NCBI RefSeq assembly: GCF_013167455.1
Contig: NZ_CP038328.1
Length of the DNA: 64,000 bases
DNA from: Escherichia coli O157:H7
GTDB lineage: Bacteria > Pseudomonadota > Gammaproteobacteria > Enterobacterales > Enterobacteriaceae
Strand: one strand, 5' to 3'
Shown here piece by piece: positions 42,001-54,000 of the stretch. Each line of letters opens with the position of its first letter. Within the stretch, counting starts at the first letter, position 1. The position numbers are program-made.

Positions 42001-45000
42001 AACTGGCACCTGACGCTGTTTATCGAAAATGGTCGCATCCTTGATTATCCGGGGCGTCCGCTGAAAACCGGCCTGCTGGAGATCGCGAAGATCCACAAAG
42101 GTGATTTCCGCATTACGGCGAACCAGAATCTGATCATCGCCGGTGTGCCGGAAAGCGAGAAAGCGAAGATCGAGAAGATCGCCAAAGAGAGCGGGTTAAT
42201 GAATGCCGTCACGCCGCAGCGTGAAAACTCAATGGCCTGCGTCTCGTTCCCGACTTGCCCGCTGGCGATGGCGGAAGCGGAGCGTTTCCTGCCGTCTTTT
42301 ATCGACAACATCGATAATTTAATGGCGAAACATGGTGTCAGCGATGAGCATATCGTGATGCGTGTAACAGGCTGCCCGAACGGTTGTGGTCGCGCGATGC
42401 TGGCGGAAGTGGGCCTGGTGGGTAAAGCGCCGGGTCGCTACAACCTGCATCTTGGCGGCAACCGCATTGGGACACGTATCCCACGGATGTATAAAGAAAA
42501 CATCACCGAGCCGGAAATCCTGGCGTCGCTTGATGAACTGATAGGGCGCTGGGCGAAAGAGCGCGAAGCGGGTGAAGGCTTCGGCGACTTTACGGTGCGT
42601 GCGGGCATCATTCGCCCGGTGCTCGATCCGGCGCGCGATTTGTGGGATTAACCATCAGCCCGGTCTTGTAGGCCTGATAAGACGCGTGAGCGTCGCATCA
42701 GGCAAGGCAAACAGTGAGGAATCTATGTCCAAACTCGATCTAAACGCCCTGAACGAACTGCCGAAGGTAGATCGCATTCTGGCGCTGGCGGAAACTAACG
42801 CCCAACTGGAAAAACTGGACGCTGAAGGCCGCGTAGCCTGGGCGCTGGATAATCTGCCCGGTGAATATGTACTTTCTTCCAGCTTTGGCATTCAGGCGGC
42901 GGTGAGCCTGCATCTGGTGAATCAAATTCGCCCGGATATTCCGGTGATCCTCACCGATACGGGTTACTTGTTCCCGGAAACCTACCGCTTTATTGACGAG
43001 TTAACGGACAAACTCAAGCTCAACCTGAAAGTGTACCGTGCTACCGAAAGCGCAGCCTGGCAGGAAGCACGCTACGGAAAACTGTGGGAACAGGGCGTTG
43101 AAGGCATTGAAAAGTACAATGACATCAACAAAGTCGAACCGATGAACCGGGCGCTGAAAGAACTTAACGCGCAAACCTGGTTTGCTGGCCTGCGCCGTGA
43201 ACAATCCGGCAGTCGCGCCAATTTACCGGTGCTGGCAATTCAGCGTGGCGTATTTAAAGTGCTGCCGATTATCGACTGGGATAACCGAACGATATATCAG
43301 TATCTGCAAAAGAATGGCCTGAAATATCACCCATTATGGGACGAAGGATATTTATCGGTGGGCGATACCCATACAACCCGTAAATGGGAACCCGGCATGG
43401 CGGAAGAAGAAACGCGTTTCTTTGGCTTAAAAAGGGAATGTGGGTTACACGAAGGGTAAATATTGCCGGATAAATTAAACGCCTCTGTCAGTAATGATGG
43501 GGGCGTTTTTATTTTGCGAGCAGCATTCCTGATTTTAAACGTGAACGCCGCTGGAAGAATTATCAGGTATAGAATGGCGTCGGGTGCTTGAGGCTGTCTG
43601 GCGTTAAGCATTCGCGAGGTTCCAGATGGACAAAAGCCCCAGGCGATATTTCTATCAACCTGAGGCTCGCGTTCGAACGTAGCAATTCGGATGTTAGTCT
43701 CTTCTTTGCAGGGAGGCAAGACATGCTAACAAAATATGCCCTTGTGGCAATCATAGTACTGTGTTGTACAGTACTGGGATTCACGCTCATGGTAGGCGAC
43801 TCGTTATGTGAGTTGAGTATCAGAGAGCGTGGTATGGAGTTTAAGGCAGTTCTCGCTTACGAATCGAAGAAGTAGCCACCACGCGGGGGTAAAACCCCGC
43901 GTATTGAATTGTGATGGTTTGGTCTCCTGTACCCTTTTTTAAATTTATATTTTTTATGTGAATATATAGTCTCTATTTATCATTATGAATTTCAAATGAA
44001 AATCATTAATTTATTCATAATATAAATGTTTATTGGCTGATATATATCACAGATAATTTTTAAAATATGCGTAAATATCCTTTAAGTTTACTGAAGGATA
44101 AAAATATTGTGACTTTCTTTGATTTCTGGGGAAAAACCCGACGTGGCGAGAAAGAGGGTGGCGACGGCTATCACCTTCTTTGCTGGCATTCGCTGGATGT
44201 GGCCGCAATGGGCTATTTAATGGTTAAAAGAAATTGCTTCGGGCTGGCTGATTACTTTCGTCAATTAGGGATTTCTGACAAGGAACAGGCGGCTCAATTT
44301 TTCGCTTGGTTGCTGTGCTGGCACGATATTGGAAAATTTGCCCGCTCTTTTCAGCAACTTTACCTGGCCCCTGAACTCAAGATTCCGGAAGGTTCCAGAA
44401 AGAATTACGAAAAGATCTCTCATTCAACGCTGGGTTACTGGCTGTGGAATTATTATTTAAGTGAATGTGAGGAGTTGCTTCCTTCATCTTCACTCTCTTC
44501 TCGTAAACTTACACGTGTAATAGAGATGTGGATGTCCATAACTACCGGGCATCATGGTCGACCACCTGACCGTATTGATGAGCTGGATAATTTTCTGCCT
44601 GAAGACAAAGCTGCCGCGCGAGATTTTCTCCTTGAAATCAAGGCACTGTTTCCGCTCATAGAGATTCCCACATTCTGGGATGATGACGAGGGCGTTGAAC
44701 TTTTAAAACAACTTTCCTGGTATATCTCTGCAACAGTCGTACTCGCAGACTGGACGGGTTCGTCAACGCGATTTTTTCCACGCGTCGCACACCCAATGGA
44801 TATTAAAGATTACTGGCAGAAAACTTTAGTTCAGGCTCAAAACGCCTTAACCGTCTTTCCTCCAAAAGCAGAAACCGCACCTTTCACCGGAATTAATACG
44901 CTGTTTCCTTTTATTGAGCACCCGACACCATTACAGCAAAAGGTACTGGATCTGGATATCAGCCAGCCAGGGCCACAGTTATTTATTCTGGAAGACGTGA

Positions 45001-51000: not shown

Positions 51001-54000
51001 TGTGCCCGAGCTGCGTACCGGACAACAACTTTGTTTCAACCTGCGGGCGAATCCAACAATCTGTAAAGCGGGCAAGCGCCACGATCTGCTGATGGAGGCG
51101 AAACGGCAGGTGAGGGGGCAGGCGGAAGGAAGTGATGTCTGGTTGCATCAACAACAGGCGGCGCTGGACTGGCTGGCAGCGCAGGGGGAGAGAAGCGGTT
51201 TTACACTGCTGGATACCTCGGTTGATGCCTACCGACAACAGCAACTGCGGCGGGAAAACTCCCGGCAACTGATCCAGTTCAGTAGCGTGGATTATACGGG
51301 GATGCTTACGGTCACCGATCCCGGGTTATTTCTGCAACGTCTCAGTCAGGGGTATGGCAAAAGCCGCGCGTTCGGCTGTGGTCTGATGCTGATCAAACCC
51401 GGAGCAGAGGTGTGACGTTTGTACCACTGAGTCCGATCCCGTTAAAAGATCGCACCTCTATGATCTTCCTCCAGTACGGTCAAATCGACGTACTGGACGG
51501 CGCTTTCGTGCTGATCGACAAAACCGGGATCCGCACGCACATTCCGGTGGGATCGGTCGCCTGCATTATGCTCGAACCGGGAACGAGAGTTTCCCACGCG
51601 GCGGTGCATCTGGCCGCCACGGTGGGAACACTGCTGGTCTGGGTCGGTGAAGCGGGCGTTCGCGTTTACTCTTCCGGACAACCCGGAGGGGCGCGGGCAG
51701 ATAAATTACTCTACCAGGCAAAGCTGGCTTTAACGGAAGATCTACGCCTGAAGGTGGTGCGCAAAATGTATGAATTACGTTTTCGTGAGCCACCGCCAGC
51801 TCGCCGTTCAGTGGATCAGCTACGGGGAATTGAGGGATCCCGCGTTCGCCAGACCTATGCATTACTGGCGAAACAATATGGTGTGAAATGGAATGGTCGC
51901 AAATACGATCCTAAAGACTGGGAAAAAGGCGATGTTGTGAATCGCTGCATCAGTGCTGCCACATCATGTCTGTACGGTATTTCTGAAGCGGCAGTATTAG
52001 CCGCGGGATATGCGCCCGCTATTGGATTTATTCATAGTGGCAAACCGCTTTCATTTGTTTATGACATAGCCGATATCATTAAATTTGATTCGGTTGTGCC
52101 AAAGGCATTTGAAATAGCAGCGAGGCAACCCGCAGAACCTGATAAAGAAGTCAGATTAGCCTGTCGCGATATTTTCCGTAGCACTAAGTTAACGGGCAAA
52201 TTAATACCGTTAATTGAGAAAGTCCTTGCTGCAGGTGAAATTGAACCACCACAACCCGCGCCGGATATGTTACCGCCTGCCATCCCTGAACCTGAAACGC
52301 TGGGTGATAGTGGTCACCGGGGGCGCGGCGGATGAGCATGGTCGTGGTTGTTACAGAAAATGTCCCTCCGCGCTTACGTGGACGGCTCGCAATCTGGCTA
52401 CTGGAAGTGCGTGCCGGTGTGTATGTTGGTGATACATCAAAACGTATTCGGGAGATGATCTGGCAGCAAATTACCCAACTGGCTGGTTGCGGAAATGTGG
52501 TGATGGCCTGGGCGACCAATACCGAGTCGGGTTTTGAATTTCAGACCTGGGGAGAAAACAGACGTATTCCGGTGGATTTGGATGGGTTACGTTTGGTTTC
52601 TTTTCTTCCTGTTGATAATCAATAGGTTATGTGTTCTTTAAAAATAAGGAAATGTTTGAATTTAGTTGGTAGATTGTTGATGTGGAATAAATTTGTTTAA
52701 AAACAGATATGTATGCTTAGTGTGTTCCCCGCGCCAGCGGGGATAAACCGTCACCAAAACAGTGACAAAAACTGTCACCAAAGTGTTCCCCGCGCCAGCG
52801 GGGATAAACCGCTCATATTCGGATTGATCGTGTGTTTCGGTTTGTGTTCCCCGCGCCAGCGGGGATAAACCGGCCCAGGGATTTGTTCAATCCAGCGTGC
52901 CGCTGTGTTCCCCGCATCAGCGGGGATAAACCGGGCGCACTGGATGCGATGATGGATATCACTTAGAATTCCCCGCCCCTGCGGTAGAACACCCAGCTCC
53001 CATTTTCCAACCCATCAAGACGCCTTCGCCAACTCCTTCACCAGCGGTAGCATTATCCGCATAACGTCACGGCAGCGACGTTCTATTCTTCCAGGAAGTG
53101 CTTTATCAATATGTTGCTGATTATCCAGTCTTACGTCATGCCAGCTATTTCCCGCAGGGAATGCGGCTGTTTTTGCGCGTTGCTGATAACCATCTTTATT
53201 CCCAAGATTCCAGTTTGTCGCTTCCACCGAAAGTACAGCAATGCCCGCTTTGTCGAATATTTCTGCGTCATTACAACATCCAGTGCCTTTCGGATAATTT
53301 TTATTCAAACCCGGATTGGTCGTTGCGGCAATTCCATGACTACGCGCAATTGCCAGCGCCCTGTCGCGCGTTAATTTCCTTACTGCTTCAGGGGTTTTTA
53401 CACCGCTGTTGAAATACAATTTATCGCCAACAATTAAGTTATCGAGATTAATCACCAGCAGCGTATTTTTCTTTTCGGTGTCACTCATCCGCTTGAGTAA
53501 ATTCTCAGCGCCTAATTTCCCTTCCTCTTCTCCACTGGTCGCCACAAATCGAATACCATACTCGGTAGGCGTATTTTTCAGGCGTTCTGCCAGTTCCAGC
53601 ATGACACCTAAACCTGCGGCGTTATCATCCATTCCTTGTAACGTCAGCCCGCCGAGATTGGCATCTGCATCTGCGTCGCTCTGCGGGGCATAGGTATCCA
53701 GATGCGCCATAATAATGATCTGCTGCGGCGCTTTGCCTTCATGAGCGGCAATCACCGTACTTCCCGTCACGTTGTGCCAGTTTTTGCGGTTATCGCGGGC
53801 GGTATAAATATATCGGCTATTAAACGTACGAATATCACTGCGGTAACCCATTTGCTGAAACTGTTGCCGAATATAATCGGCAGATAACATTTCTGCGGGT
53901 GTTCCGGTCATTCGTCCCGGAAAGAAAGTGGCAATATGTCGCGCCTGTGTATTGGCAAAATCGCCAGGTTTAGGTGACGAGGCGTGTACGGGGAGAATAA

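Follow-up and report, generated by a model that had tools for sequence, protein, structure and literature searches.

A CRISPR-Cas locus of type I-E, cas-E1 variant, in Escherichia coli O157:H7

Between cysH and iap, the chromosome of Escherichia coli O157:H7 carries a CRISPR-Cas locus whose effector proteins are strongly unlike those of K-12. Which system is this, how far does the difference extend, and does O157:H7 or K-12 carry a replacement? An earlier note on the 64,000-nucleotide stretch that we analysed (the window) had described a complete type I-E locus of eight full-length cas ORFs, followed by a leader and a four-spacer array, and had proposed an alternative cas allele or a recombinational replacement of cas3-cse. 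We conclude, with a probability of about 95%, that positions 44067-52994 are the chromosomal type I-E CRISPR-Cas system of O157:H7, in its cas-E1 (cas-EO) variant, at the ancestral site between cysH and iap.

An intact type I-E locus of the E1 variant

We identified the cas genes with the curated NCBIfam profile models for type I-E, applying the cut-offs of the models, and all eight genes pass (Table 1). The ORFs lie where the earlier note had placed them, with no internal stops, and a leader and a four-spacer array follow as it had described; the leader is 96 nt long, and the array has five repeats and 32-nt spacers. We found no lesions in the cas genes, either in the ORF map of the locus or in the matches to the eight models, which are essentially full length; the ORFs are open and the sequence matches O157:H7 genomes. 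The single cas3 encodes an HD nuclease fused to a helicase, and its catalytic motifs are all present: H86 and D87 of the HD motif, K316 as Walker A lysine, and D455/E456 of the DExH motif. Residues H86, D87, K90, K316, D455 and E456 align with H74, D75, K78, K320, D452 and E453 of K-12 Cas3. The type I-E signature proteins Cse1/CasA and Cse2/CasB match TIGR02547 and TIGR02548 over their full length. The genes cas7e, cas5e, cas6e, cas1e and cas2e stand in canonical order without cas4, and the ORF map has no extra gene from cas3 to the leader. In Cas6e, H30 aligns with H20, the catalytic residue of the K-12 protein, and Cas1 Y22, E141, H208 and D221 are conserved. Also typical of type I-E are the 29-nt repeat with its stable hairpin, the spacer length of 32 nt and the position of the leader, on the side of cas2.

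Table 1. Features of the CRISPR-Cas region, in positions of the window
Feature	Position	Strand	Details
CRISPR-II (CRISPR2.3) leader and mini-array	26760-27031	+	Between queE and ygcE
hok/sok type I toxin-antitoxin	43582-43875	+	Hok CDS 43723-43875; marker region adjoining cas3 in E1 variant
AT-rich intergenic region 5' of cas3	43876-44066	+	GC 34-38% over 43800-44199
cas3 (fused HD nuclease and SF2 helicase)	44067-46766	+	899 aa; TIGR01587 217 bits, TIGR01596 92 bits
casA/cse1 (Cascade large subunit)	46864-48426	+	520 aa from MNSFSLL; TIGR02547 620 bits, cut-off 70
casB/cse2 (Cascade small subunit)	48423-48959	+	178 aa; TIGR02548 98.6 bits, cut-off 28.5
cas7e/casC (Cascade backbone)	48971-50026	+	351 aa; TIGR01869 448 bits
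cas5e/casD	50037-50783	+	248 aa; TIGR01868 160 bits
cas6e/casE (pre-crRNA endoribonuclease)	50765-51415	+	216 aa; TIGR01907 293 bits
cas1e integrase	51412-52335	+	307 aa; TIGR03638 380 bits
cas2e	52332-52625	+	97 aa; TIGR01873 134 bits
CRISPR-I leader, variant L1 ('leader-A'), AT-rich	52626-52721	+	GC 38.5% over 52600-52799
CRISPR-I (CRISPR2.1) array	52722-52994	+	R1-R3 read GTGTTCCCCGCGCCAGCGGGGATAAACCG; two changes in the loop of R4; R5 degenerate
CRISPR-I spacers, 32 nt each	S1 52751-52782; S2 52812-52843; S3 52873-52904; S4 52934-52965	+	

The locus is 100% identical in DNA sequence to O157:H7 genomes, and the RefSeq annotation of an identical O157:H7 genome has the same cas gene starts. 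The alternative allele suspected in the earlier note is thus a variant already described from O157:H7, cas-E1/cas-EO (Almendros et al. 2014, mBio, PMC3903273; Díez-Villaseñor et al. 2013, RNA Biol, PMC3737337). We see no substantive difference from the system described there, and no result contradicts the identification. Earlier publications also cover the locus, the polymorphism of two alleles in E. coli, the anchor spacer, the linkage to hok/sok and the difference in PAM. Several features assign the cas genes to E1. They group with those of O157:H7, apart from the K-12 effectors (21-35% amino-acid identity). A hok/sok module lies between cysH and cas3, detected as a match to Rfam RF01794 sok (105 bits, 43582-43738) together with an intact Hok ORF that RefSeq labels 'Hok/Gef family protein' in an identical genome; hok/sok was found in all strains except E2 carriers (Almendros 2014, PMC3903273). 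GC content from cas3 to cas2 is 51.5%, higher than the 44.8% of K-12; the published values are 53.5% for E1 and 45.6% for E2. The leader (L1, leader-A), the type-A repeats and the CAT/ATG PAMs of the natural protospacers are also those of E1. Of the published primers, cysH-F matches exactly at 43504-43524, and cas3E1-R has a single site, located as expected (minus strand, 44148-44167), with 3 of 20 positions mismatched, which may reflect diversity within E1. The K-12-type cas-E2 variant was rejected: the K-12-derived models NF007248 (Cas3) and NF007247 (CasA) score 427 and 103 bits, short of their cut-offs of 569 and 576.

The AT-rich region 5' of cas3 is presumed to be the promoter and regulatory region. 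A promoter consensus scan of 43400-53100 returned 8 promoter-like sites against 8.2 expected by chance, so we claim no promoter.

Arrays, spacer targets and predicted activity

The CRISPR-I repeats start at 52722, 52783, 52844, 52905 and 52966, with a 61-bp period, and the degenerate last repeat ends at 52994. The type-A repeat reads ...GGGGAACAC on the reverse strand and begins with GTGTT, versus GAGTT in K-12. Its hairpin (7-bp stem, 4-nt loop, -15 kcal/mol, z = -3.2) is kept in R1-R4 and weakened in R5; with its terminal repeat degenerate, the array probably does not yield a proper crRNA from spacer 4. At the Rfam gathering threshold the whole window yielded only CsrB and sok, and no CRISPR repeat family. 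The leader matches the K-12 L2 leader at 71 of 94 aligned positions and differs at 23 (about 75% identical); an E1-specific leader has been described (PMC3903273). A second array, CRISPR-II, which is absent from the earlier note, is served by the same cas genes. It comprises two repeats of the GAGTT... type at 26942-27031 and a single spacer, CAAAAGCGGGCAGCGAAAAAATTAAAGTCGAG (26971-27002).

We searched the spacers against phage and plasmid databases and against O157 genomes, as the earlier note had suggested. Three of the five spacers of both arrays are of phage or prophage origin, and each of the three protospacers is immediately preceded on its 5' side by ATG, in agreement with a 5'-AWG PAM. 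Spacer 1 matches the origin iterons within an O-like replication gene of a lambdoid prophage (32/32), spacer 2 a major capsid gene (30/32), and the CRISPR-II spacer, in its best match, a P2-like prophage gene (31/32, position 5 of the seed being mismatched). For spacers 3 and 4 the search gave no protospacer in a phage or plasmid; the apparent 'plasmid' matches of spacer 4 lie in chromosomes that are filed under plasmids, or in a segment captured from a chromosome. In O157 genomes the spacers hit array sites only, with no self-target, at E-values of up to 0.01-0.05. There is no second copy of spacer 1 within the window, and none of the paper texts searched contains its sequence.

The four-spacer array is identical in 291 genomes. 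At least one of the four spacers is matched in 4673 of 5426 complete E. coli genomes, and S4 is present in most of these, K-12 included; spacer 4 is the species-wide anchor spacer. The array of O55:H7 has spacers 2-4 in common with O157:H7, plus five other leader-proximal spacers. It lacks spacer 1, which is therefore specific to the O157 lineage, so the lineage has acquired a spacer at least once since the split. The suggestion of little recent acquisition agrees with the invariance across the 291 genomes, although spacer 1 marks at least one gain, and the array in O157:H7 appears almost static.

By analogy with the type I-E family, the locus is predicted to act as follows. The AT-rich leader would drive transcription of the array, and Cas6e would cleave every repeat at the foot of its 7-bp hairpin, yielding 61-nt crRNAs, on which Cse1, Cse2, Cas7, Cas5 and Cas6e would assemble as Cascade. 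Cascade would bind spacer-matching DNA adjoining a 5'-AWG PAM and would recruit Cas3, which retains intact HD nuclease and helicase motifs, for degradation of that DNA. Cas1-Cas2 would insert new 32-nt spacers at the leader end; a CWT/AWG acquisition motif has been shown experimentally for the O157:H7 proteins (PMC3737337). Expression of the operon under laboratory conditions is probably weak, as in K-12 and Salmonella, and H-NS silencing at the AT-rich region upstream of cas3 and at the leader may be the cause.

An alternative is that the locus is an intact but silent relic that gives O157:H7 no immunity and is kept by drift or by a role other than defence. A short array that is invariant across 291 genomes fits a rarely active system, and Almendros et al. 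noted low activity as a possible reason for the small groups of spacers in phylogroup E (PMC3903273). K-12 and related systems are reported to be silenced by H-NS (PMC3903273 and further papers), and for Salmonella cas genes non-defence roles are reported, with regulation and virulence having been proposed. However, all eight genes are full length and keep their catalytic residues, and dN of Cas1 and Cas2 lies far below a saturated dS, which indicates purifying selection. Spacer 1 was gained after the O55:H7 split, with a correct PAM, and the Cas1-Cas2 of O157:H7 is active in acquisition when expressed (PMC3737337). We consider a silent relic possible, though we lean against it.

A bolder proposal is that E1 is active in nature, with S1 excluding one class of lambdoid phage from the prophage-rich O157:H7, and that its Cascade differs from that of K-12 in PAM reading or Cas3 recruitment. 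In sequence, the E1 Cascade stands nearer to type I-E systems from Methanosarcinales than to that of K-12. A search of solved structures with CasA, the sole subunit searched, returned none closer than the K-12 protein (E-value 2e-15); hence, E1 might differ mechanistically from K-12, whose cas-E2 Cascade structures include 4QYZ, 4TVX and 5H9F. We regard the proposal as a whole as unlikely.

Extent and polarity of the replacement

The E1 locus resembles the K-12 type I-E (cas-E2) locus in subtype, gene order, chromosomal site, 29-nt repeat, hairpin and 61-bp period, and both have the anchor spacer and a degenerate terminal repeat. The two differ in the cas3-casA gap (97 bp here, 414 bp in K-12), in the hok ORF, which K-12 lacks, and in acquisition, for which O157 uses CWT and K-12 only CTT/AAG (PMC3737337). 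By BLASTP, identity to K-12 is 29% for Cas3, 21% for CasA, 30% for CasC, 35% for CasD and 27% for CasE, and for CasB no significant match to its K-12 counterpart was returned. The strong divergence of Cas3 and Cse1 that the earlier note had described is thus real, and no Cas protein compared exceeds 90% identity; Cas1 and Cas2 reach 85% and 86%. The flanking CysI/H, Iap and CysD/N proteins are 99-100% identical to those of K-12.

The note had called both Cas1 and the flanks K-12-like. This is correct for the flanks and for Cas1 as a protein, but not for cas1 DNA. We used BLAST values for the nucleotide identities of divergent genes, having discarded a global alignment with free end gaps that gave artefacts; cas1 and cas2 are about 71-77% identical to K-12. 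Their dS relative to K-12 is saturated (2.6 for cas2, not computable for cas1), versus 0.06-0.19 for the flanking genes. The low DNA identity and saturated dS place cas1 and cas2 within the divergent block, and dS rules out a recent breakpoint between cas6e and cas1. A block of 97% identity with K-12 stops at 43725, the hok start codon, and high identity resumes only inside the array. Hence, the non-homologous block opens at the start codon of hok, takes in cas1-cas2 and the leader, and ends inside the array.

The E1 allele, which the earlier note had linked to some E. coli lineages, is not a minority allele. Among 5426 complete E. coli genomes, 2415 carry E1 (90-99% identity to the locus) and 1114 carry the K-12 type (E2); E1 is the commoner allele and the K-12 type the less common. 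The E1 module occurs with the same gene order in E. albertii, Citrobacter youngae, Klebsiella spallanzanii, K. indica and Phytobacter ursingii. It adjoins cysH in C. youngae, K. indica and P. ursingii, and hok and iap in E. albertii; the locus retrieved from K. spallanzanii included neither flank. CasA identity to this locus is 96% for E. albertii, against 73-76% for the remaining genera, and Cas1 identity is 93-98% across the five relatives. All are orthologues of the ordinary kind, as far apart as species or genera are, with hok seen only in the Escherichia loci. A CasA-based scan of genome contigs, which depends on six exact 8-residue peptides, returned no Salmonella; Almendros 2014 (PMC3903273) placed Salmonella in the E1 cluster. 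Because E1 occupies the cysH-linked site in relatives, with identities that fall gradually, we conclude that the replacement is carried by K-12 and not by the O157:H7 strain, and Almendros 2014 (PMC3903273) likewise placed it in the K-12 lineage.

That a recent recombination in this strain swapped only cas3-cse, leaving cas1-cas2 and the flanks K-12-like, is suggested by the gap between Cas1/Cas2 (85-86%) and Cas3 and Cascade (21-35%), and by the K-12 pair being a strong outlier on the trend of Cas1 versus Cas7 identity across taxa, but we judge it highly improbable, since recent shared ancestry with K-12 reaches neither cas1-cas2 nor the leader, and the cas1/cas2 dS, the limits of the high-identity flanks, the shared position of the whole E1 module in E. 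albertii, Citrobacter, Klebsiella and Phytobacter, and the published placement in K-12 all argue against it. The outlying K-12 pair shows that the adaptation and interference modules did have separate histories at some deep point.

Implications for the type I-E model

As a discovery the locus is of small value: the system is real but ordinary. Its interest lies in the comparison with K-12, whose Cascade and Cas3, the type I-E model, represent the less common allele, gained by replacement. E1 carriers, O157:H7 included, have effector proteins that are only 21-35% identical to that model. Given this low identity and the lack of a closer CasA structure, conclusions drawn from K-12 on regulation, PAM use and anti-CRISPR sensitivity may not transfer to them.

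Cas genes, leader and main array

Eight ORFs lie in a row on the plus strand, with no internal stops in the ORF map. Each matches its own curated NCBIfam type I-E model (Cas3, Cse1/CasA, Cse2/CasB, Cas7e, Cas5e, Cas6e, Cas1e and Cas2e), with scores above the cut-offs and essentially full-length model coverage. Residues aligned to the known catalytic positions of the K-12 proteins are conserved in Cas3 (H86, D87, K316, D455 and E456), Cas1 (Y22, E141, H208 and D221) and Cas6e (H30), and neither this alignment nor the ORF map revealed a lesion in any cas gene. The gene starts are the same as in the RefSeq annotation of an identical genome, and over its full 8.9 kb the locus has 100% identity with E. 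coli O157:H7 chromosomes and 99% with O55:H7. In the raw sequence, cas2 is followed by an AT-rich leader of 96 nt. Five repeats of the GTGTT type at a spacing of 61 bp, and hence four spacers of 32 nt, are seen both in the sequence itself and in the repeat-finder output. Repeat 4 has two changes, both in the hairpin loop, while repeat 5 is degenerate and ends where the earlier note had ended the locus; RNA folding indicated that a 7-bp stem is kept in repeats 1-4 and weakened in repeat 5. Thus, the ORFs, NCBIfam models and repeats confirm that note's description of a complete type I-E locus, with eight full-length cas ORFs followed by a leader and a four-spacer array.

Features of the window (coordinates in nucleotides)
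Feature	Window coordinates	Context	Description
CsrB small RNA	4242-4601	unrelated to the CRISPR-Cas locus	full length; Rfam RF00018, 383 bits
CRISPR-II (2.3) leader and array	26760-27031 (array 26942-27031)	between queE and ygcE	two GAGTT repeats (K-12-type), one spacer
hok/sok-type type I toxin-antitoxin	43582-43875	between cysH and cas3	intact; Rfam sok and 50-aa Hok ORF
End of 97%-identity DNA flank vs K-12	43725	start codon of intact hok	
Eight cas ORFs	44067-52625		
CRISPR-I array	52722-52994		repeat starts 52722, 52783, 52844, 52905, 52966
Spacer 1	52751-52782	leader-proximal	inverted repeat GTGACA...TGTCAC

Judged by its sequence, the locus is built like a standard type I-E system, in which transcription would run from the leader into the array, Cas6e would process the product at the repeat hairpin, Cascade would search for targets with an AWG PAM, Cas3 would degrade them, and Cas1-Cas2 would integrate new spacers at the leader end. 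GC content is 34-38% upstream of cas3 and 38.5% in the leader; from this AT-richness we infer only that both regions might be suited to H-NS silencing, as in K-12. A promoter scan of the locus region was uninformative.

Relationship to the published cas variants

The locus is a published cas polymorphism of E. coli and is already known. Two variants of cas-E, E1 and E2, have been described in this species (Almendros et al. 2014, PMC3903273). The majority variant, E1, counts O157:H7 among its carriers and has its own leader (L1), hok/sok adjoining cas3 and a GC content of 53.5%; E2, with a GC content of 45.6%, occurs in K-12 and for the most part in phylogroup A. That study concluded that E1 was replaced by E2, and also described an anchor spacer and a degenerate repeat common to both variants (PMC3903273). 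The O157:H7 cas set has also been named cas-EO and tied to leader-A and type-A repeats; in experiments, its spacer acquisition adjoins CWT (AWG on the other strand), and that of K-12 CTT only (Díez-Villaseñor et al. 2013, PMC3737337). The earlier note's suggestion of an alternative I-E allele known in E. coli is borne out, since the hok/sok, leader, GTGTT repeat and GC content (51.5%, as compared with 44.8% in K-12) agree with cas-E1. The cysH-F primer site is matched exactly, and the cas3E1-R site is in the expected place with three mismatches.

We compared the locus gene by gene with the iap-cysJ region of K-12 MG1655. Amino-acid identity is 29% for Cas3, 21% for CasA (Cse1), 30% for CasC (Cas7), 35% for CasD and 27% for CasE, and CasB gave no significant BLASTP match. 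The proposed dissimilarity of Cas3 and Cse1 from their K-12 counterparts is therefore real, and neither protein reached the K-12-specific equivalog model (Cas3, 427 bits vs a cut-off of 569; CasA, 103 bits vs 576). The flanking CysI, CysH, Iap, CysD and CysN are 99-100% identical to K-12, as the earlier note proposed for cysH and iap. Cas1 (85%) and Cas2 (86%) appear K-12-like at the protein level only: cas1/cas2 DNA is ~71-77% identical, and dS reaches 2.6 for cas2 and could not be computed for cas1, as against 0.06-0.19 for flanking genes. Hence, the view of Cas1 as K-12-like holds for the protein but not for the DNA, and a replacement limited to the cas3-cse region does not fit, since the divergent block takes in cas1-cas2 and the leader (71 of 94 positions match the K-12 leader). 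The flank of high identity stops precisely at the start codon of hok, so that K-12 retains sokX only, and high DNA identity resumes only within the array, where K-12 has spacer 4 in common with this locus, as well as the degenerate terminal repeat. By these comparisons, the divergent block comprises hok-cas3-casABCDE-cas1-cas2-leader and the array's younger part. Between cas3 and casA lie 97 bp, as compared with 414 bp in K-12; thus, the K-12 Pcas region is without a counterpart here.

Spacers, protospacers and array history

Spacer 1 has a 32/32 match in E. coli STEC384, where a lambdoid prophage carries an O-like replication gene adjoining a replication protein P gene; the match falls in the iteron region of the former. 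Near matches from a phage of Proteus and a phage-plasmid of Citrobacter have the same ori context. A terminator scan flagged the inverted repeat of this spacer on the minus strand, but we rejected it as a terminator, the structure being the iteron of the targeted phage origin. Spacer 2 has a 30/32 match in the major capsid gene, both in Escherichia phage vB_EcoM-569R10 and in E. coli prophages, with mismatches at non-seed positions 24 and 27. No match to spacer 3 was found outside arrays. Of 5426 genomes, 4673 match one or more of spacers 1-4, and nearly all of those, K-12 included, match spacer 4, which is the species-wide anchor spacer. A second array, CRISPR-II, with a single spacer, is to be added to the earlier note's description; the RefSeq record of an identical strain does not annotate it as CRISPR. 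The CRISPR-II spacer has a 31/32 match to a P2-like prophage gene, with the mismatch at seed position 5. All three protospacers (spacers 1, 2 and CRISPR-II) are preceded by ATG, for which the chance is 1 in 64 per site, in agreement with the published finding that leader-A arrays have CAT/ATG as their most frequent PAM in nature (PMC3737337). At the thresholds used, no spacer had a second site in O157 genomes, and there is no sign of self-targeting.

Spacers 1-4 co-occur in 291 genomes, indicating that the array is static within O157:H7. The array of O55:H7 USDA5905 (NZ_CP039837.1 1184758-1185213) has eight spacers, of which the trailer-end three are O157 spacers 2-4; at the leader end it has five other spacers, where O157:H7 has spacer 1 alone. 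Thus, since the two lineages parted, one or more spacers have been gained by O157:H7, or others lost. The earlier note's reading of the short array as a sign of little recent acquisition is fair, but "none" would be too strong. One repeat in O55:H7 USDA5905 ends CCC rather than CCG.

Distribution and polarity of the two alleles

The E1-type allele, the majority one, is present in 2415 of 5426 complete E. coli genomes (>=80% of length, roughly 90-100% identity), and the K-12 allele in 1114 of this collection, which is rich in K-12 laboratory derivatives. On the conjugative IncHI2A plasmid pIOMTU792 (NZ_LC542972.1, 242057-252560), E1-type casB-cas7e-cas5e-cas6e-cas1e-cas2e, a CRISPR array and iap lie downstream of ISEcp1-blaCTX-M-15 within a split DUF6012 gene, without cas3; the Cas7 protein accession is that of O157 Cas7. 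This segment looks like a chromosomal piece mobilised by ISEcp1, with cas3 missing. A 7-kb contig of a "Collinsella sp." MAG (JAIJJM010000114.1, Actinomycetota) has cas genes whose identity to the E1 set of E. coli is 96-99%, and is most likely Escherichia DNA contaminating the bin.

We scanned species-representative genomes for CasA and then used tblastn with all locus proteins. Relatives were found in E. albertii (CasA 96%; hok and iap seen as flanks), Escherichia sp. MOD1-EC7003 (94%; cysH and hok), Phytobacter ursingii (76%; cysH and iap), Citrobacter youngae and Klebsiella indica (both 75%; cysH), and, with no flank within the locus retrieved, Klebsiella spallanzanii (76%) and Atlantibacter (63%). 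Salmonella is absent from the output of the CasA scan, which depends on six exact peptides, and its affiliation with E1 is taken from the published work (PMC3903273). Identity across these loci drops smoothly as taxonomic distance grows, as expected under vertical inheritance at a cysH-linked site. This pattern supports E1 as the resident, ancestral allele, with the replacement in K-12, in agreement with the published view.

The O157 effectors are more similar to type I-E proteins of Methanosarcinales (Cas3 37-39%, CasA 37-40%, Cas7 45-50%) than to those of K-12 (29%, 24% and 31%, respectively, in this tblastn comparison). Cas1 and Cas2 have the reverse pattern, with ~85% identity to K-12 vs 62-67% and 52-62%, respectively, to the Methanosarcinales archaea, and K-12 is a strong outlier on the trend of Cas1 versus Cas7 identity across taxa. 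Together, this contrast and the outlier position of K-12 suggest that, in the K-12 variant, the modules for adaptation and interference have different histories.
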